64,000 bases of DNA from Candidatus Nealsonbacteria bacterium (GTDB lineage Bacteria; Patescibacteriota; Minisyncoccia; Minisyncoccales; DAOVPY01): contig DAOVPY010000002.1 in the NCBI GenBank assembly GCA_030628945.1, forward strand, positions 87,831 to 151,830, given 5' to 3'. Within the stretch, counting starts at the first letter, position 1. Every line of letters starts with the position of its first letter. The translations under genes were made by a program, and so were the position numbers. Of the stretch, positions 1,995-53,255 are shown piece by piece. Below the pieces are notes generated by a model. The model made no database searches. It was not told where the DNA came from and saw only the letters and a program-made list of their open reading frames with translations.

Positions 1995-3185
1995 TTAGGA
2001 ATTTAAAGTTGCTCCCTTCGTCATCATCGCATGACGCAACGCTTGTTCCATCATCAGTCCAATTTCACTCAAATATTCGTCTACTCTTTCATCATCTCCC
2101 CGGGCTTGACGATTAGTCAGAAGTTTGGTGTCTCTATTGCTCAAATAGCGATAAGTCAACATTTCCATATCAATCATAACAGCGTAGTTGCCGTATGGAG
2201 TTCCGGTCAATAATGGGTGTTTGATGATGTTAACCGTTCCGTGAGGTGAAACATATCTGGTAATGTTCAATCCGTAGACTTTTTCTTTGCTTAGAATTTC
2301 TAATTTTCCTTTGGCCCAACCGTTAATCATTGAAACCACTGCCGCTGAAGCGAAGAGATATTTCTCACAATTGCCATGAGCAAACGCGCTTTCCAACCAT
2401 GTCTCAAATTCAGCTTCGGTATCTACTCCCAGACTTTGAGCAGCGCCGCCGGTAAGAACCATATCTATTATCCCTTGAGTAGTCCTTAACGGATTGCCAA
2501 GCGCCCCGGTTAAAGCAGTTTGTCCTTTACTAAAGATAAAAGCTCTTTCTATGTCAACCATATGTTCAATTCCTTTCTTTCTTCTTTGATAGTCAAAGTC
2601 ATTCTCGTTAATTAAGGTCTTGGTGTTCTTGGCGGTCTCGGTAACTCCGAATGGAGTTCTGAAAATCTGACAATAACCATGCTTCAAAGCTGAGGCAGTT
2701 CCTTTGATGGCTCTCAACCCTGCTCCTTCCTCATTAGCATTACCGATAATCCAAATCGTGTCGCCGGCAAAATCAGTAGCGCCCGCTCCCGTATCTGCTC
2801 CTATTTCCGCGCCAACTACTACGGTGGTGGCGGTTACGGATGCTACCTTAAAAACCCAGCCATGTTCAGAATCTAAAACTATATCTCCTGCCTGAAAGTA
2901 ATTACCCTCGGGAGTAGTTACGGTAAAAGTTCCGCCAGTGTCCGGGTCCCAGTTTCCGGAAGCCACTACTGCGCTTCTCACTCCAAATGTGTCTTCATAC
3001 CAATCAAACTGAGGGTCAGTGGTTTCTTTCTTTTTCATTGCTTTTCCTTCTCCGGTGCACGACTTTCCAGCATTCGTCAAAATAGCCAATAAAGGATATT
3101 TGTTTACATCAAGCAAGCCAATAGTATCTTTCATGTCATATTTTCTTGCGGTTGCGTTTTCTGTGCTTCTTGAGTATGTAGGCAT
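1995..3185 (-). CDS. Major capsid protein (HK97-fold type)
   Basis: 396 aa directly after an acidic scaffold-like gene. N-terminal ...DVNKYPLLAILTNAGK..., size and position recall SU10/DUF5309-type major capsid proteins (from memory, not searched). Confidence 0.7.
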   Translation of the reverse strand: MPTYSRSTENATARKYDMKDTIGLLDVNKYPLLAILTNAGKSCTGEGKAMKKKETTDPQFDWYEDTFGVRSAVVASGNWDPDTGGTFTVTTPEGNYFQAGDIVLDSEHGWVFKVASVTATTVVVGAEIGADTGAGATDFAGDTIWIIGNANEEGAGLRAIKGTASALKHGYCQIFRTPFGVTETAKNTKTLINENDFDYQRRKKGIEHMVDIERAFIFSKGQTALTGALGNPLRTTQGIIDMVLTGGAAQSLGVDTEAEFETWLESAFAHGNCEKYLFASAAVVSMINGWAKGKLEILSKEKVYGLNITRYVSPHGTVNIIKHPLLTGTPYGNYAVMIDMEMLTYRYLSNRDTKLLTNRQARGDDERVDEYLSEIGLMMEQALRHAMMTKGATLNS

Positions 3186-3373
3186 TTCAGAATTAAGTTT
3201 CTTTCAATTTGTTAATCAGTAAACTAATCAACAAATTTCAAAAACTTATTTTCGTTTTTGAGAAGCTCGACTAAACTTCCCAGGGCGATTTGGATTATCT
3301 TTAGAGTTCTTTGCCAATGGCAAGCTCCTTAGGTCAAGGGGTGCTTTCCTCCCCCGTTTTTTTTATTAAATTA

Positions 3374-4258
3374 TTATAATCCTCCAAGTTCTCCGGTTTG
3401 AGATCGTTTCAACATCCCTGTCTTAATTTTTTCTTCTTCGGTTTCCGGAGCTCCGCCTGGCGCTGCTCCCGCGTTGGTCTCTATTTGCGCTTTCGCTTTC
3501 TTGATTTTTTCTTTTTCTTCTTCGTCTGGTGTTTTCTTGCCTCCCCCCACCAATTTATCTACTTTGGCGCAAGCTTCTTTAAGACTTATCGTTTTGTCTT
3601 TTGAGGCAGCTGCTACCACAATTGCCAGCGCTAATTCTGTATAATCATTATCTTTTTTAAGAAGAGGATGATCCTTTCGGGCTTCTGCTATTTCTGATTT
3701 CACACTGACTTTAATTTTGGAGCTGTCCGAATAAATCTTTTTTGCTATTGCCCCTGCCTTTGCCTCTGCTTTCTCATCTATTCTCTTATCAACCCATTCA
3801 GCGAATTTTTCCGGTGTCATTTTAGAAAAGTTAAGCTTATCTTCTTTTAAAATTTCTTTGAGCTCTTTTCCCTCTTCCTCTTTCTTCTCCTCCTCTTTTG
3901 TTTCCTTTTTTTTCTTTGTTATATTCTCAGCTTTTTCTTGGGCCTTTTTATCAATCATGCCCTCTAATTCCATATAGGATTTAGCGATATCCTTTGCCGA
4001 CTTGTCCTTAAACTTGTCGGGCATCTTAAATTGTTCGCTTCCCTCCTCAGTCCCTTCTTCTTTTTTTTCTTCAAATGGAACAAAGTTGCCTTCTCCATCC
4101 TCTAATGGTTCACCTGGATTGTCAGAATCTTCTTTGTATTTAACTCCATCTATTTCAACAGATTTTTCTTCTTCAGGAGTTTCTTCTGTGGTTTCTTCCT
4201 CTTCATCTTCCCCGGGATTATCGAGTTGGGATTTGAGTTCTTCGGTGTTATCCGACAT
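3374..4258 (-). CDS. Scaffolding protein candidate
   Basis: 294 aa, extremely acidic and Lys/Glu-rich, predicted helical. Lies between the portal-proximal genes and the capsid gene. Confidence 0.5.
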   Translation of the reverse strand: MSDNTEELKSQLDNPGEDEEEETTEETPEEEKSVEIDGVKYKEDSDNPGEPLEDGEGNFVPFEEKKEEGTEEGSEQFKMPDKFKDKSAKDIAKSYMELEGMIDKKAQEKAENITKKKKETKEEEKKEEEGKELKEILKEDKLNFSKMTPEKFAEWVDKRIDEKAEAKAGAIAKKIYSDSSKIKVSVKSEIAEARKDHPLLKKDNDYTELALAIVVAAASKDKTISLKEACAKVDKLVGGGKKTPDEEEKEKIKKAKAQIETNAGAAPGGAPETEEEKIKTGMLKRSQTGELGGL

Positions 4259-6147: not shown

Positions 6148-7992
6148 TTAGATTATTTGTTTTTTCGACCTTTGTGCAATTTTCTTAATTAAAGGAATCT
6201 TGCCTTCTGGCATTAGCACTTCTTCCGAAGGCAATATTGGTTCTGGTTCTCTCGGCGGCAATACAACCGGCTTCAGCGCTTTTGGCTTTGGCTCCGGCCG
6301 TGATTCTTTTTCCTCTTCCTCCTCTTCTAATAAAAGATCTTCATATTGGCTTTTGTCGCATTCCTCCAAAATTAACTTCTGAAGAGTTCTTTTCCTGGTC
6401 TTCCATTTCTTTACTGATTCAGCGTCATTTAGGTCCGGTTTATCTTCTGCCACAAATATCTTATAAAGCAATAGCGCTTCATCCTTTCTCTGCTCTGGTG
6501 TTCTGTAGGGCTTCGGTTCAATCTCTACTCTGGCATCTACTTTTATTTTTTTATCTTTTTGCGTAAATTCCTTGAAATCTATTTCTTTGCCAACTAATCT
6601 GTAAGCTTTTTCTTTTGTCAAAAATTCTTGATTTAACTCAATCAGATTATTTACTAATCGAGTTGTTACAATTCCAAGCTGTCGCACCAATAAACTAAAT
6701 CTAATATTGGTCTGCATTAATAAGAGTTCCACTTTGCCCATTGGTTCTTGTTTTGATTTCGGCAGACCTGTTGCGTATTCTGAAATCGCCAGCGATGATT
6801 GAATTTCTTTTCTTAACAGATTATCTTTTTCTATCCATTGTTTGCTTATTTCGGGTGGTTTCTCTGTCACTACATCATCGACATTATCCAATTCCCAAAC
6901 CGCTCCTGGCTTATATTTAATATCATCAGCAACTAAGTGAGCTTTTTTCCTTAATTTCCGAACAGGATCAAGAGTGAAAACAATGTCGTCCATCGCTTGA
7001 TTTCTGGAATCTGCGATTTCAATAATGGTTGTTTCTACCGGCTCGATGTGTCCGATTGACCATAATTCCCAAAGCACAGCGTGGTCTGATAGTTTAAGAA
7101 AAGTCCTGCCGTTATTCACATTCTTATAGGGATTATCATCGTATCTAATTAGTTCCTCTTGGTTAACAATTACTAACAGCTTACCTTCCTCGTGGTCCCA
7201 AATTTGTAAAATCTCCAGTTTTTCTTCGGTTATCTTTTCTTCTGATTTTGTGCCTTCTTTTTCTCCGCCTTTCGCAATCTGCCCCATTTTTTTAGTATTA
7301 ATTTCGTATCTCTCTTTGCGCGGGTCATCAGTAATTTTTTTATTTTGGACTTTATCTAAATTACTATAAATCTTATTATTGCCTCTTTTCTTTTCTTCTT
7401 TTTCTAATTGCCCTTTTGTTTTGTAACTTAACTGAATTTCGTATCTGCTGTCTTTCTGCAGGTCGGTCGCTTCGGGGTCCGGATAGAAAAGCCAAAGGTC
7501 TTGAATCACTAAAAAGGGAGCGCCGTTATCCTCGTCATCCTTACTTGTGCCCCAAGTTAACTGAGCGACTCCATCTCCGAATTCTAATGTGGAATTAATC
7601 AAGTCAATCTTTTTGTCTGAAAACTCTATTGTATCTAAATTGTGTTTAATTAAATCGTCCCACGATTCTAATGATTTTGATTTTACATCTTTTTTAAATC
7701 GAGGTAGTATTCTCACATTTACCTTTGCCGCTGCTAATCTCGGTTTGACTGTTTCCACAATCTCAAAGGCAATCGGAGGCATTAGATTGGTATTATAAGC
7801 GTAGTTCGTCTTATCCCGATAGGCGCGATAAAGATAAGCCATCCGCAACCATTTCTCCTGGTATGGCTTGCGGAAATCTCTGGCTTTTTTGAATTTCTTT
7901 TTCCATTTATCAACAATCTCTTTTCTCTTTTTTTCATCTAAGCTATCGAGTGTTACTTGTTTTGTTATTTGTTTTGTTTTTTCTTTTGGCAT
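6148..7992 (-). CDS. Portal protein candidate
   Basis: 614 aa, first large gene after the large terminase. Size and position are typical; charged low-complexity C-terminal tail. No motif-level proof. Confidence 0.6.
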   Translation of the reverse strand: MPKEKTKQITKQVTLDSLDEKKRKEIVDKWKKKFKKARDFRKPYQEKWLRMAYLYRAYRDKTNYAYNTNLMPPIAFEIVETVKPRLAAAKVNVRILPRFKKDVKSKSLESWDDLIKHNLDTIEFSDKKIDLINSTLEFGDGVAQLTWGTSKDDEDNGAPFLVIQDLWLFYPDPEATDLQKDSRYEIQLSYKTKGQLEKEEKKRGNNKIYSNLDKVQNKKITDDPRKERYEINTKKMGQIAKGGEKEGTKSEEKITEEKLEILQIWDHEEGKLLVIVNQEELIRYDDNPYKNVNNGRTFLKLSDHAVLWELWSIGHIEPVETTIIEIADSRNQAMDDIVFTLDPVRKLRKKAHLVADDIKYKPGAVWELDNVDDVVTEKPPEISKQWIEKDNLLRKEIQSSLAISEYATGLPKSKQEPMGKVELLLMQTNIRFSLLVRQLGIVTTRLVNNLIELNQEFLTKEKAYRLVGKEIDFKEFTQKDKKIKVDARVEIEPKPYRTPEQRKDEALLLYKIFVAEDKPDLNDAESVKKWKTRKRTLQKLILEECDKSQYEDLLLEEEEEEKESRPEPKPKALKPVVLPPREPEPILPSEEVLMPEGKIPLIKKIAQRSKKQII

Positions 7993-47421: not shown

Positions 47422-48621
47422 CTATTTTATAATTTTGGTGACTACTCCGGCTCCAACTGTCTTTCCCCCCTCTCTGATGGCAAATCTCTGTTTTTCCTCA
47501 AGGGCAACCGGCGCAATCAATTTAACTTTTAAATTAACAGTGTCTCCCGGCATAACCATTTCCGTGCCTTCGGGCAAAGTGACATCGCCGGTCACGTCAG
47601 TGGTCCGAATGTAAAACTGAGGCTTGTATCCCGCGAAAAACGGAGTATGGCGGCCTCCTTCCTCTTTACTCAAAATATAAATTTCTCCTTCAAATTCAGT
47701 GTGAGGGGTGATTGAACCGGGTTTTGCCAAAACTTGGCCTCTTTCCACTTCTTCTTTCTTAAATCCTCTTAAAAGAATACCAACATTGTCTCCTGCCCTT
47801 CCCTCATCCAATATTTTATTAAACATCTCAATGCTAACAGCCGTAGTTTTCTTGGTTGGCCGCAATCCTATTAATTCCACCTCTTCATTGGCATGGACTA
47901 TTCCTCTTTCAACTCTCCCCGTGGGAACGGTTCCTCTTCCGGCAATAGAAAAGACATCCTCAATAGCCATTAAAAAGGGCTTGTCTATGTCCCGTGTCGG
48001 CTCTGGAATATGCTCATCCACGGCTTTCATCAACTCAAAAATCGGTTTGGCGACTTCGTCGTCTGCTGTTTTCGCATCTATGGCCTTTAGGGCAGAACCC
48101 CTGATTATAGGAATCTTATCCCCGGGATAATTATATTTCTTCAAAAGCTCCCGCACCTCGGATTCCACTAAATCAATAATTTCCGGGTCGTCCACCATAT
48201 CGCACTTATTCAAAAAAACCACTAATGAAGGCAAACCCACCTGGCGCGCCAGCAAAATATGTTCTCTGGTTTGGGGCATTGGCCCGTCCGGCGCAGAAAC
48301 CACTAAAATCGCGCCGTCCATCTGAGCCGCGCCGGTAATCATATTCTTGATATAGTCGGCGTGGCCCGGGCAATCAATATGCGCGTAATGCCGCTTTTCG
48401 GTCTCGTATTCCAAATGAGCGACATTAATGGTCAAGCCGCGCGCTTTTTCCTCGGGCGCCGAATCAATCTGGTCCACGCTTTTCTCGCTGCATTTCCAGC
48501 CCTTTAACTTAAAGACGTGGAGAATAGCCGCGGTGAGCGTGGTTTTGCCATGGTCAACATGACCAATGGTGCCGATATTAAGATGAGGTTTCCCTCTCTC
48601 AAATTTTTCTTTCTCTGCCAT
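47422..48621 (-). CDS. tuf: Elongation factor Tu
   Basis: [27 protein letters not shown]. Confidence 0.98.
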
Positions 48622-48841: not shown

Positions 48842-49105
48842 TTAACAAGGCAAGTCCTCTATCTTCAATGGTTCGTTCTTTAGTCCTTCTGGCAACTGCT
48901 CATTATCTTGGTCTTTTTTAATTTCCCCGAGATTATTAGATTTATCCAAAATTTTTTTATAGTCCTCAAATTTGAGCACTGCCAACTCTGGCTTTCCGTT
49001 TTCCACAATAATAAGTCTGCCTTTATCTTTCTCTATTAAATTCTTGATTTCATCTAATTCCATGAATTTTAATTTTACCTTAGCAAACTCCTTCCAAAAA
49101 ATCAA
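48842..49105 (-). CDS. Phd/YefM-like antitoxin-domain protein (no adjacent toxin)
   Basis: GRLIIVENGKPELAVLKFEDYKKIL resembles the Phd/YefM N-domain. The last codons and the stop come from a palindromic element. Confidence 0.4.
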   Translation of the reverse strand: MIFWKEFAKVKLKFMELDEIKNLIEKDKGRLIIVENGKPELAVLKFEDYKKILDKSNNLGEIKKDQDNEQLPEGLKNEPLKIEDLPC

Positions 49106-49124: not shown

Positions 49125-49496
49125 TTACTTTTGGTCCTCAAATTTCGGCGCTTTCCCTTCTTTGACTAATTTTTCTAATTCCTCAAGAGACCTTTCGTAA
49201 GACGTTCCTCTTGAACCCAAAGCGGTTTTTGTTAATATCTCTGTGATTCTTTTATCTATCTTCTGCCAATCCTCAAACGCGACACCCATTTTCTTCATTT
49301 TTTCTCGCATCAACTCCTCAAATCTCTTTTCTTTCTCAAGCCCTTCTCTTTCCTTTGCTTCTTTGTTCACTTGCCTCCAAACAGAAAAATCCAGTTCCTC
49401 AAAATCTTGAATACTCATCTTCCTTAATTCTTCTACATTTAATATCTTTTCTTTTTCTTCTTCAACTTTCGGTTCTCTTTTTTCTATTGATGGCAT
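49125..49496 (-). CDS. Hypothetical acidic protein (paralogous 5' end with 50588-50911)
   Basis: MPSIEKREPKVEEEKEK...; shares its upstream 30 nt and N-terminus with the other copy. Confidence 0.45.
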   Translation of the reverse strand: MPSIEKREPKVEEEKEKILNVEELRKMSIQDFEELDFSVWRQVNKEAKEREGLEKEKRFEELMREKMKKMGVAFEDWQKIDKRITEILTKTALGSRGTSYERSLEELEKLVKEGKAPKFEDQK

Positions 49497-49561: not shown

Positions 49562-50209
49562 TTACATTTTAGATAGACTCTTCTTTAGCGCTTCTTGCAA
49601 TGCTAATGATATAATCTCTTCTAATAACGAGTAATCATGTTTATCGGCAAGTTGCATTGCTCTGGTATAACGTTCTCTGTCTTTTTTAATTTCAACTTTA
49701 ATTTCTAAAAGCGGAAGTCCCAATTTCAAAAAAATAAGATTGGTTAAAAGTCGCGCTGTTCTGCCGTTATAGTCATTAAAAGGATGTATCCAAACAAAAC
49801 GATGCTGTGCCCAACTAGTTAAGGATACAATTTCTTTAAGATATTTATCCACTTCTGTTTTTGGGGGAATATGTTTTAACCTCTCATTCAAATCATCGCA
49901 AAATTGTTTTATTAAAATCGGCACTTTATAAAATTTTGGCGGGTGATAACCGGAAATCTCTACTTCAATTTTTCTGAATTTTCCTGCCCATTTTGGAAAA
50001 ATCCAGGCAAAAGATTTTTTATGGATAGACAAAATCATTTCGGAAGAAATTAAAAAATCCTTTTTTGATAAAATTTTTATAAACTTTAATCCCCTTTTCA
50101 CCCCTTCGCTTTCTAATTTTACTAATTTAGAACGAGAAACAATTCCAAACTTTGTCTCCTTGAAATTGGTAGCGTCTTTTGGTTTTGTAGAATTTTTCTT
50201 TTTTGGCAT
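49562..50209 (-). CDS. Fic/Doc-family protein (toxin candidate)
   Basis: Fic motif variant HPFNDYNGRTAR (consensus HxFx[DE]GNGRxxR, with Tyr replacing the first Gly). Confidence 0.8.
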   Translation of the reverse strand: MPKKKNSTKPKDATNFKETKFGIVSRSKLVKLESEGVKRGLKFIKILSKKDFLISSEMILSIHKKSFAWIFPKWAGKFRKIEVEISGYHPPKFYKVPILIKQFCDDLNERLKHIPPKTEVDKYLKEIVSLTSWAQHRFVWIHPFNDYNGRTARLLTNLIFLKLGLPLLEIKVEIKKDRERYTRAMQLADKHDYSLLEEIISLALQEALKKSLSKM

Positions 50210-50210
50210 T

Positions 50211-50429
50211 TTACTTTGATTTTAATATCTTCTTAATATCCTTGCGGCTTATATTCTCGCCCTCAAGTTTCATTGTCCGAAAAATCACTTCTGGAACTTG
50301 TTTATTGAAAAATTTCTCTTTTTCTGCTTGAGAAAGTTTCAAAAAATTATACAAAAGAAAAGCCTGCGCAAGCTCTCTGCGCTTTTGCGATTGACTCTTT
50401 TTAATAATTTTAATTTCAGATTTTTTCAT
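50211..50429 (-). CDS. FicA/VbhA-like antitoxin
   Basis: 72 aa. Contains TMKLEG, which matches the inhibitory helix motif [ST]xxxE[GN]. Its stop lies 1 nt before the Fic ATG. Confidence 0.55.
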   Translation of the reverse strand: MKKSEIKIIKKSQSQKRRELAQAFLLYNFLKLSQAEKEKFFNKQVPEVIFRTMKLEGENISRKDIKKILKSK

Positions 50430-50587
50430 CTTGTAAACTTCTCCTAAAAAATCAAATCAAATTTCTATACAACAACAGAAATGTTTAACTTACGATGTTA
50501 AACATACCGATGTTTAAAAATCATTTCTCGCCCTCATCCTTGCCGCACGCTCAAATTGCCCATCACGTCTCCTAAAAAATCACTTAA

Positions 50588-50911
50588 TTAATTTAGGCCT
50601 TTGGTCATTTTGGCAAAAAGTTCGCGAAGTTCTTCGTGATCAGCAAAACTTTCACCTTCTATATTCAACTCGTCAGTTACATCCATCACTTCCAGCCCCT
50701 GCTCTGTAATAGTCCAAAGGCCGCCATCCCTTTTTTTGTAACGCTTAATACCTTCCTCTATTTGCTCTCGGGAAAGCCCAAATCTTTTCACAACCGGCAA
50801 AGAGAGAATTTCTTCAATGTTTACTTCCTCTAATTCTTTTTTCTTTTCTTCTCCTTGTTCCCCTTCTTTCTTTTCGATTACTGGTTTTCTTTTTTCAATT
50901 GATTCTGGCAT
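50588..50911 (-). CDS. Hypothetical acidic protein (paralogous 5' end with 49125-49496)
   Basis: MPESIEKRKPVIEKKEGE... Confidence 0.45.
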   Translation of the reverse strand: MPESIEKRKPVIEKKEGEQGEEKKKELEEVNIEEILSLPVVKRFGLSREQIEEGIKRYKKRDGGLWTITEQGLEVMDVTDELNIEGESFADHEELRELFAKMTKGLN

Positions 50912-51146: not shown

Positions 51147-53255
51147 TTACCGGCGTTTGCCTTCCGCGATTTCCCGGGCAATGTTGCCCGGGACTTCCTC
51201 ATATTTGTCAAATTCCATAGTAAAGGTTCCTCTGCCCTCTGTAAGAGAGCGGAGCGAAGTGGCGTAGCCGAACATCTCTGCCAAGGGAACCTTGGCGTCA
51301 ATCACTTTCAAATTCAAGCGGTCGCTTGTTTCTTCTATTTTGCCGCGCCGCGCGCTCAAATTGCCCATCACGTCTCCTAAAAAGTTTTCCGGGACAATTA
51401 CTTCCAGTTTCATAATCGGTTCCAAAAGAATCGGCTTGGCTCTTTTTGTCGCGCTTTGCAATGCCTGGGAACCGGCAATTTTAAAAGCGATTTCCGAAGA
51501 ATCAACTTCATGGAAAGAGCCATCATATAAAGCAACGCTCATATCTATCAATGGATAGCCGGCAACCACGCCTTTTAACATTGCCTCTTTAATTCCTTTT
51601 TCAACAGCCGGAATAAACTCCTTGGGAATAATTCCGCCTTTAATTTCGTCAATAAATTCAAAGCCCTGTCCTCTTTCTTTTGACTCAACCCTGAGCCAGA
51701 CATGGCCGTATTGGCCCCTGCCTCCTGACTGGCGAATATATTTTCCTTCGGCTTCGGCTTCTGTTTTTATCGTCTCTTTGTAGGCAACCTGGGGCCTGCC
51801 CACGCTCGCTTCAACTTTAAATTCTCTTTTCATTCTGTCCACTAAAATATCCAGATGAAGTTCGCCCATTCCGGAAATAATGGTTTCTCCCGTATCAGGG
51901 TCGCCTTTTATTCTGAAAGTCGGGTCTTCCTCGGCCAAACGATGAAGAGCCATGCCCATTTTTTCCTGATCTGCTTTTGTTTTCGGCTCAATGCGAATAG
52001 CAATAACCGGCTCAGGAAAAGTAATTTCTTCCAGAACAATCGGCACGCTGTCCGGGTCGCATAATGTATGGCCTGTGCTGGTATTTTTGAGGCCCACGGT
52101 AGCCGCGATGTCGCCGCTAAATAATTCATCCACCTCTTCTCTTTCAGCGGCATGCATCCTTAAAATCCTGCCTAAACGCTCTTTCTCTCTGGTGGTGGTA
52201 TTCAGGATATAAGAACCCTTGCTTAACGTTCCGGCATAAACCCTAAAATAAGTAAGGGCTCCCACATAAGGATCTGTGGCAACCTTGAAAGCCAGCGCGG
52301 TGAACGGCTCGCTGTCATCGGATTTCCTGCTTATTTCTTTGCCTGTTTTTGAATCAACGCCGATAATCGCCGGCAAGTCAACAGGGCTGGGAAGGTAATA
52401 AACAACTCCGTCCAGCAAAGGCTGGACTCCTGTATTTTTCAAAGCGCTCCCGCAAAAAACCGGAATAAGTTTGTAATTTATGGTTGCTTGTCTTAAAACC
52501 CGTCTTAAATCCTCAATGGAAATTTCTTCGCGCGCCAGATATTTTTCCAGCAAATTTTCGTCTTCCGCAGCGATTTTCTCAACCATTTTGTCCCGCCATT
52601 TATGCGCTTTTTCCAATAAGCCAGAAGGGATTTCTTCTAATTTTACTTTCTCACCCAAATTGCCTTCAAATTTCAGCGCTTTCATAGAAAACAAATCAAC
52701 CACTCCGCTTAAATTCTGTTCTTCTCCAATTGGAATCTGCACGGCGCAGGCGTTCGGAGAAAGTTTCTGGACAATGGAATTAAAACTCTTTTCAAAAGAG
52801 GCGCCTATTCTGTCCAATTTATTGATAAAACATATTCTTGGCACCTTAAACTTATCTGCCTGTCGCCACACGGTTTCTGATTGCGGCTCTACTCCGGCAA
52901 CGCCGTCAAAAACAACTACGGCGCCGTCCAGCACTCTAAGCGACCTCTGAACCTCAACGGTAAAATCAATATGGCCGGGTGTGTCAATAATGTTAAATCT
53001 ATGCTCGTTTGTTTTTTCTTTGGTTAAATATTCTTCCGGCGACCAAAAGCATGTTGTTGCCGCGGAAGTTATGGTAATCCCCCGCTCTCTTTCCTGCTCC
53101 ATCCAATCCATAATCGCTTTTCCTTCATGCACCTCGCCGATTTTGTGGGAAATCCCTGTATAAAAAAGCACCCGTTCAGTCACGGTTGTTTTCCCTGCGT
53201 CAATGTGCGCTATAATGCCAATATTTCTGTATTTTTCTATTGGATACTTTCTCAT
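51147..53255 (-). CDS. fusA: Elongation factor G
   Basis: [21 protein letters not shown]; 702 aa. Confidence 0.98.

Follow-up and report, generated by a model that had tools for sequence, protein, structure and literature searches.

A candidate two-polypeptide Fic module with an aromatic signature-motif residue between fusA and tuf in a Nealsonbacteria genome

We describe a pair of adjacent genes in a 64,000-nucleotide stretch of DNA from a Candidatus Nealsonbacteria bacterium (assembly GCA_030628945.1, contig DAOVPY010000002.1, positions 87,831 to 151,830), referred to here, at its full length, as the window. The downstream gene encodes a 215-residue Fic protein and the upstream gene a 72-residue protein with a TMKLEG motif, which matches the [S/T]xxxE[G/N] consensus of Fic inhibitory helices. 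The analysis makes it probable that the two genes form a class-I-type, two-polypeptide Fic module, similar to a type II toxin–antitoxin (TA) system, in which the small protein would bind the Fic protein, Glu56 would compete with the gamma-phosphate of the nucleotide for R153, and relief of this inhibition would allow transfer of a nucleoside monophosphate (NMP). Sequence relationships and gene order suggest a class II Fic enzyme of FICD type whose inhibitory region is encoded by a gene of its own, hence the class I arrangement.

Results

Structure of the gene pair

Both open reading frames (ORFs) of the pair are on the minus strand, which the sequence-only reading of this DNA had left unstated. 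That reading described a 72-residue upstream ORF with the motif TMKLEG, and the motif was duly found at residues 52-57, with Glu56 invariant in the family. It also placed the stop codon of the small ORF one nucleotide (nt) from the Fic ATG, and this is exact: the TAA (50213-50211) and the Fic ATG (50209-50207) are separated by the single base 50210. A stop codon and a change of frame separate the small ORF from the Fic ORF, and the TAA-A-ATG junction suggests translational coupling. The C-terminal end of the small ORF reads ...RTMKLEGENISRKDIKKILKSK. The features of the pair, in window coordinates, are listed below.

50211-50429, minus strand: small ORF (ORF call), 72 residues, putative FicA-like antitoxin or donor of the inhibitory helix
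50259-50276, minus strand: TMKLEG, residues 52-57 of the small protein, matching [S/T]xxxE[G/N]
50262-50264, minus strand: Glu56 codon of the small ORF
50207-50213, minus strand: TAA-A-ATG junction, comprising the small-ORF stop, a single spacer base and the Fic start
49562-50209, minus strand: Fic ORF, 215 residues, putative toxin or enzyme (Pfam Fic PF02661, E 2.4e-14)
49751-49786, minus strand: Fic signature motif HPFNDYNGRTAR, residues 142-153
49769-49771, minus strand: Tyr147 codon, standing where the first Gly of the Fic motif would be
50132-50188, minus strand: conserved N-terminal tail of the Fic protein, STKPKDATNFKETKFGIVSR, residues 8-26
50441-50445, minus strand: AGGAG, Shine-Dalgarno-like by sequence reading, 11 nt upstream of the small-ORF ATG

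Conservation of the gene pair

A pattern scan of genomes, which sees close relatives only, recovered 24 clear relative loci. In 21 of these a small ORF immediately precedes the Fic gene, and the relatives with the pair span Parcubacteria, Microgenomates, Saccharibacteria and others; at the three loci without the pair, either the contig ends (L013 and L016) or a full Fic ORF is lacking (L027). The full [ST]xxxE[GN] motif is present in 20 of the 21 upstream ORFs, with L014 carrying E-E for E-G. The junction varies among the relatives from a 4-nt overlap to a 26-nt gap, in differing relative frames, and the identical arrangement is found on three independent contigs that carry the same Fic protein. 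An identical Fic protein occurs on metagenome scaffolds, and its close relatives are labeled Parcubacteria, Minisyncoccales or Nealsonbacteria, all of the candidate phyla radiation (CPR/Patescibacteria). The paired alignment of small and Fic proteins comprised 20 locus pairs together with the pair in the window; the Fic ORF of L033 is truncated and L024 is a duplicate of L022. In L033 (Levybacteria, 3001-3617) the small ORF is intact and the Fic ORF is broken after 94 residues by a frameshift, marking either a pseudogene or an assembly error.

As [ST]xxxE[GN] is carried by 5 of the 344 (1.5%) stop-to-stop segments of 50-100 residues in the window, a single occurrence beside a Fic gene is only mildly unlikely by chance, and is suggestive rather than proof. 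The gene pair is neither a chance association nor an assembly artefact, because the split and both motifs are conserved. The sequence-only reading had itself raised the counter-case of a single frameshifted class II gene, considered here as a class II Fic gene broken by a frameshift or sequencing error, with the small ORF no independent gene. The C-terminus of the small protein and the N-terminus of the Fic protein are indeed both similar to the stretch of FICD just after its inhibitory helix, and the two ORFs lie 1 nt apart in an A-rich stretch. However, different assemblies share the split at 21 related loci, where the junction runs from -4 to +26 nt and the relative frame differs, it recurs on the three contigs noted above, an AGGAG ribosome-binding site of its own precedes the small ORF, and in the small-protein family, which comprises at least 562 clusters, none of the 120 best matches is fused to a Fic domain; nor do the Tyr/Phe-type Fic representatives described below contain the motif in cis. 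The counter-case is in effect excluded by these observations, and we hold it to be extremely improbable.

The small protein

Nineteen close homologues of the small protein were found, and at least 562 clusters were collected by profile search, of which the 120 best-scoring members are 57-88 residues long, with no Pfam domain. Even among small proteins with identities as low as 26-40%, Glu56 does not vary, and T52, L55, G57 and E58 are either invariant or conserved at 90% or more. The putative inhibitory-helix motif is the only strongly conserved block of the protein and so forms its core, and the second glutamate, E58, gives it an E-G-E signature, as opposed to the E-G-N of class II proteins. 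The AlphaFold2 model (mean predicted local distance difference test score, pLDDT, 87.5) comprises helices at residues 3-31, 34-55 and 62-70, with E56-G57 at the C-terminal end of the second predicted helix.

The small protein has no match in Pfam, NCBIfam, PADLOC, PHROGs or the PDB (Pfam and NCBIfam at E <= 1), and no helix-turn-helix or other DNA-binding domain was matched in Pfam or NCBIfam. PDB matches to SpoVT and Mab-21 are at chance level and were discarded. Four members of the small family weakly match DUF4172 (best E 0.0052), an N-terminal domain of Fic proteins.

The Fic protein

More than 325 homologous clusters make up the Fic family, and the 120 best homologues are nearly all 203-219 residues long. 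The sequence-only reading had observed that the signature HPFNDYNGRTAR corresponds neither to the AMPylating consensus nor to the Doc variant, and the alignments bear this out. Against HxFx(D/E)GNGRxxR, Tyr147 in place of the first Gly, G(1), is the sole departure, the other seven specified positions being met by the retained residues H, F, D, N, G(2), R(1) and R(2). Against the Doc signature HxFx[D/N][A/G]NKR, the residue before the Arg is Gly149 and not Lys, and Tyr stands at the A/G position; a Doc-like PHROG matches the protein only at E 0.03. Among 55 family members no variation is seen at F144, D146, Y147, N148, G149, R150 or R153, and conservation of the catalytic His142 is 90% or higher. 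R153, the R2 of the motif, is the pairing partner of the inhibitory Glu in known complexes. All residues assigned to catalysis and to Mg2+ and phosphate binding (motif roles in PMC3667792) are thus kept, and NMP transfer would remain the default chemistry, because only a single motif position deviates.

The AlphaFold2 model, built on 55 homologues (pLDDT 88.7, with residues 1-15 disordered at pLDDT <50), confirms the FIC fold, with its helices and a flap hairpin at residues 85-88. In a Foldseek search with this model human FICD came first, with a template modeling (TM) score of 0.72-0.75 and a root-mean-square deviation of about 1.9 Å, and C. elegans Fic-1 and Enterococcus EfFic were also among the best matches; VbhT and EcFicT appeared at ranks 39-41 with 18-19% identity. 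FICD is also the best sequence match (E 1.6e-15). By sequence reading, the 215-residue protein contains no [ST]xxxE[GN] motif of its own. Its N-terminal tail is conserved, with T14, G22 and R26 invariant and T8, K9, P10, K11, T19, F21 and I23 at least 90% conserved. DSSP assigns bridges at residues 19/22 and 85/88 of the model, and the conserved tail is predicted to bridge to the flap hairpin, with low model confidence over residues 1-20.

Mobility of the cassette

Comparison of four loci from different genomes showed that DNA similarity extends from the start codon of the small ORF to the stop codon of the Fic gene, with unrelated flanks. The cassette sits between fusA (51147-53255) and tuf (47422-48621), within a ribosomal-protein operon, in the window (genome GC content 39%), and in the same interval in L040. 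In L038 (4784-5645) and L039 (4786-5648) its place is between ftsA and ftsZ, with 12-19 nt left between its end and the ftsZ start, and more distant relatives carry it at other sites. Its neighbors at these sites include YafQ, HicAB, MazE/PIN, DUF4258/DUF2283 and MNT/HepT genes, and in L038 it adjoins MazE/PIN and HicB genes. Three traits of type II TA systems are present, namely a compact bicistron, a variable position and the company of other TA genes. From its distribution, the putative module behaves as a mobile TA cassette in recurrent insertion sites of conserved operons, and in these small genomes essential operons seem to be where TA cassettes gather. Relatives of the cassette were not found on IMG/VR viral contigs.

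The location invites a guess about the target. EF-Tu is a target of Doc. It is also a documented target of SoFic (bioRxiv 2026.07.09.737422). A position beside tuf or ftsZ as a pointer to the target is speculation, and the position beside tuf should not be over-read because unrelated TA genes occupy the same sites.

Relationship to class I and class II Fic proteins

The pair had been described in the sequence-only reading as a class-I-like FicT/FicA pair; the architecture stands, whereas descent from FicT/FicA does not, as the closest relatives are class II FICD enzymes. Like the class I modules VbhT/VbhA, EcFicT/EcFicA and Fic-1/AntF, the pair has a small protein with [S/T]xxxE[G/N] encoded upstream and a Fic protein that lacks an inhibitory helix of its own and conserves R2. 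The N-terminal segment of the Fic protein, predicted to touch the flap, is comparable with the 'N-terminal lock' of VbhT and EcFicT (PMC5033356). The pair differs from the class I modules in that the small protein has no detectable sequence kinship to VbhA/FicA-type models, and in that class II FICD is a closer match to the Fic protein than VbhT or EcFicT is, the signature has Tyr at G(1) and the hosts are CPR/Patescibacteria.

FICD (HYPE) provides the best match in both sequence and fold. The alignment of the Fic protein with FICD opens just past the FICD inhibitory helix, so that the conserved tail corresponds to the segment that follows the helix. When a profile of the small protein was compared with the inhibitory region of 16 class II Fic proteins, 29 columns fell in register (P 0.0056): RTMKLEGE aligned onto the HTVAIEGN and NSNAIEGN segments, in register with the TVAIEGN/SNAIEGN stretch of FICD-type proteins, and the match reached '...ILE' before the start of the Fic-FICD alignment. 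Class II relatives carry the motif in cis, 132-141 residues before the His. In the pair, by contrast, the inhibitory segment is a separate polypeptide, cut off by a stop codon and a frame change that are kept as a split in 21 loci, there is no tetratricopeptide repeat or other extra domain, and the motifs read DYNGR rather than DGNGR and E-G-E rather than E-G-N. The FICD-like, separate-gene reading is put forward because the weak profile signals and the gene order combine in its favor. A short duplication at the split point, with the tail of the small protein and the head of the Fic protein both resembling FICD 'ILETR', was considered and set aside, their mutual similarity being too weak.

These relationships raise the alternative of a split class II enzyme, that is, a stable obligate heterodimer with regulated or bifunctional AMPylase/deAMPylase activity towards a housekeeping target, with the Glu serving de-modification as in FICD, EfFic and Fic-1-AntF. 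FICD, C. elegans Fic-1 and EfFic, which match best in sequence and fold, are regulated bifunctional enzymes, the class II inhibitory region is where the small protein aligns, with the Fic N-terminus taking over from its end, and the 1-nt coupling favors equimolar synthesis. A class I complex is reported to act as a deAMPylase (PMC13327609), and SoFic constitutively deAMPylates (bioRxiv 2026.07.09.737422). Nevertheless, the cassette occupies unrelated genomic positions with unrelated flanks, it is found among classical TA genes, and its distribution looks patchy (24 clear relatives in a scan limited to close relatives), which is more in keeping with an accessory module than with a housekeeping role. 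We consider the housekeeping heterodimer unlikely.

An aromatic residue at G(1) across a wider clade

A HMMER search of 1.84 billion representatives returned 3584 Fic relatives at E <= 1e-3, and motif positions 5-6 were tallied for the 119 motif-bearing proteins among the top 150, as follows.

D-F: 45
D-G: 33
N-G: 17
D-Y: 16
E-G: 3
D-L: 2
Q-G: 2
N-E: 1

Phe or Tyr therefore occupies G(1) in 61 of the 119, and HPFxDYNGRxxR, with Tyr, is found in 116 of the 120 best Fic homologues; by these alignments the aromatic residue at G(1) is a clade trait and not a peculiarity of this locus. No [ST]xxxE[GN] was found in cis at class II or III positions among the Tyr/Phe-type representatives, and cis inhibitory motifs at class II spacing were confined to Gly-type representatives. 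On Rhodococcus plasmids a Phe-type Fic protein (HPFEDFNGRAVR) is preceded by a 63-residue protein with SMAMEGEPV, and a Rhizobium plasmid Gly-type Fic protein has a related upstream protein (…THFENEMITRELV). The small-protein family is not exclusive to the aromatic type, because such a protein precedes the Rhizobium Gly-type Fic. Fic TA proteins of Campylobacter fetus were examined as possible members of the aromatic clade and rejected, having canonical or other motifs. Searches of the literature with the motif strings DFNGR and DYNGR returned unrelated papers only, and nothing was found on this variant in the literature searched.

The fixed aromatic residue could signify changed chemistry, with another nucleoside triphosphate or a nucleotide-diphosphate derivative as co-substrate, or with phosphate transfer, in place of AMP transfer from ATP. 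In favor of this are the constancy of the residue in the proportions just given, across a large clade, the distinctive partner motif, whose second Glu is invariant (E-G-E versus the class II E-G-N), and precedent, as deviations from HxFx(D/E)GNGRxxR have been taken to mark other activities, for instance in AnkX (PMC3667792) and Doc (PMC5033356). On the other hand, the catalytic, Mg2+-binding and phosphate-binding residues H, D, N, G(2), R(1) and R(2) are all kept, and Doc and AnkX deviate further (K for G(2), V for R(2)), at positions that are canonical here. A departure from AMP transfer is compatible with the module proposed above, although on balance we think it rather improbable.

Connections to defense

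A C-terminal Fic domain with HPFxDFNGR is found fused to Eco57I/MmeI-type restriction-modification enzymes, Cas3 and a GSU0054-family Cas protein (representatives P0251, P0262, P0269, P0252, P0321 and P0322). It is conceivable, but doubtful, that the Tyr/Phe Fic clade is functionally distinct, paired with '[ST]xxxEGE' inhibitors and using a co-substrate or binding mode unlike that of ATP-dependent AMPylation, and that it serves as a portable effector of conflict systems, free-standing in CPR and on actinobacterial plasmids and fused to the C-termini of type IIG restriction enzymes, Cas3 and GSU0054-family Cas proteins.

The closest plasmid-borne Fic protein, on a Pontibacter plasmid (L036, 2022-2600; 34% identity), has the motif HPFVNGNGR and no small ORF upstream. 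On one side it is flanked by an ATP-dependent endonuclease/helicase pair, on the other by a TaqI-like restriction enzyme gene, a context resembling a defense island.

Among defense-database models, PADLOC PDC-S04 (hidden Markov model PDLC04839) matches Fic residues 4-205, that is, its full length, at E 3.2e-30, and the SoFic model matches the protein at E 5.8e-17. Sofic, reported as a Fic-based defense toxin, is also under the control of a small antitoxin (PMC12249575). Both systems differ from the pair described here: PDC-S04 is a single-gene candidate, and Sofic is a 360-residue class II protein with its antitoxin encoded downstream (PMC12249575). These matches, the fusions to restriction and Cas proteins and the setting of the Pontibacter gene between an endonuclease/helicase pair and a restriction gene would be in keeping with anti-phage abortive infection, in which the small protein restrains the Fic protein until infection frees it and translation or replication is shut down. 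Against it, PDC-S04 has never been verified and gave no defense in one native-host test, and the neighbors in the window and in close relatives are ribosomal, cell-division and TA genes, with no recognizable defense systems. The finding that IMG/VR viral contigs hold no relative was counted as neutral. Abortive infection is compatible with a class-I-type TA-like module, but we judge it improbable as the role of this cassette.

Resemblance to the mobile mystery proteins

The best NCBIfam match of the Fic protein is mobile mystery protein B (TIGR02613), which with mobile mystery protein A (TIGR02612) likewise forms a two-gene unit with Fic downstream, and the C-terminal HTMRLEA of the Agrobacterium protein A resembles RTMKLEGE. 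The likeness is limited, however, as the Fic protein scores 73.5 bits against a cut-off of 124.4, protein A has 153 residues whereas the small protein has 72 and no helix-turn-helix or other family-model match, and the Agrobacterium protein B has HPFPNGNGR, with Asn for Asp and the Gly kept. NCBIfam describes mobile mystery protein A as belonging to a helix-turn-helix family. In the Agrobacterium pTi copy (L037, 1025-1486), protein A carries a C-terminal HTMRLEAQG with weak HHalign support (20 columns, P 0.0056). These resemblances suggest that the 'mystery' pairs may be Fic modules with a larger upstream antitoxin. A search for 'mobile mystery protein' found no functional literature.

Proposed mechanism

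In the class-I-type module that we favor, the 72-residue protein would bind the Fic protein such that the helix end T52-x-x-L55-E56-G57-E58 enters the nucleotide site. There Glu56 would pair with R153, the last Arg of the Fic motif, displacing the gamma-phosphate and holding the nucleotide in a non-productive pose. If the small protein were lost or outnumbered, the Fic protein would transfer NMP, most likely AMP, to a side-chain hydroxyl of a cellular target held at its beta-hairpin flap, and this modification would stop growth. The analysis demonstrates the gene pair and its conservation, the conserved motifs, the Fic fold, the lack of a cis inhibitory motif, the mobility of the cassette and its setting among other TA genes, whereas binding, the position of the Glu, toxicity, chemistry and target are inferred.

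Several results weigh against this mechanism. The HHalign probability of the match between the small protein and class II proteins is 6.5%, which is statistically weak. Neither as a single sequence nor as a profile does the small protein match VbhA/FicA-type models or solved antitoxin chains, and a Foldseek search with its model returned nothing significant, AntF of Fic-1 (8wt0_B) being at rank 7 with E 3.7. The Tyr at the first Gly of the phosphate-binding nest means that nucleotide binding may differ from that of canonical AMPylators (motif role in PMC3667792). No conserved operator was found upstream of the cassette among the relatives examined, and the nearest defense-database family, PDC-S04, is the unverified candidate discussed above, with its single negative native-host test.

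Other features of the locus

Upstream of the small ORF, at 50481-50517, are three half-sites, ATGTTTAAC, GTTAAACAT and ATGTTTAA, separated by 7 nt and 4 nt, respectively. None of the 20 relatives examined has this palindrome in its upstream region, and it is specific to this genome; because of that absence it is not part of the conserved module, and its candidacy as an autoregulatory operator was dropped. In many Microgenomates-type relatives (L015, L018, L019, L020, L026 and L029-L031) a TATAAT box ends 6-10 nt before the start of the small ORF, which suggests that their small-ORF transcripts are leaderless or nearly so, with their own promoter. The copy in the window differs from these in having the AGGAG site instead. 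An 18-nt direct repeat (17/18 identical; 50437-50454 and 50565-50582) includes the AGGAG site (minus strand), with one copy before the small ORF and the other just past the stop of a 107-residue ORF, and may be a trace of recombination or insertion.

The cassette is flanked by two Glu/Lys-rich ORFs on the minus strand, of 123 residues (49125-49496) and 107 residues (50588-50911), neither of which has a family match. Both begin MP(E)SIEKR.P, but the idea that they are paralogues with similar N-termini was rejected (BLASTP E 0.9). Just upstream of tuf, an 87-residue ORF (48842-49105, minus strand) has a weak match to Phd/YefM antitoxins (E 5e-4, below the cut-off). L040 holds a clear 80-residue homologue (6250-6492) in the same pre-tuf position, with a shared ...KIEDLP C-terminus, and the 87-residue ORF seems to be a resident gene of the pre-tuf site, separate from the Fic cassette.

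Implications

The definition and mechanism of class I-III Fic inhibition are known, including control of a Fic enzyme in trans by a small [S/T]xxxE[G/N] protein (PMC5033356, PMC3667792), and the class I architecture was defined by Engel et al. 2012, quoted there. What appears to be new is a candidate E-G-E inhibitor family that has gone unannotated, an ancestry that is FICD-like and not FicT-like, and the constancy of an aromatic residue at G(1) throughout a clade whose domains are also built into restriction and CRISPR proteins. If the proposed mechanism is true, a large inhibitor family, of at least 562 clusters and with no Pfam model, would join the known Fic antitoxins, and the class I arrangement would have arisen here from a FICD-like class II lineage. 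The chemistry of the uncharacterized Tyr/Phe clade would then inform both Fic enzymology and defense biology. For the CPR/Patescibacteria, the locus provides a further view of TA genes repeatedly lodged in essential operons (fusA-tuf and ftsA-ftsZ) of very small genomes.

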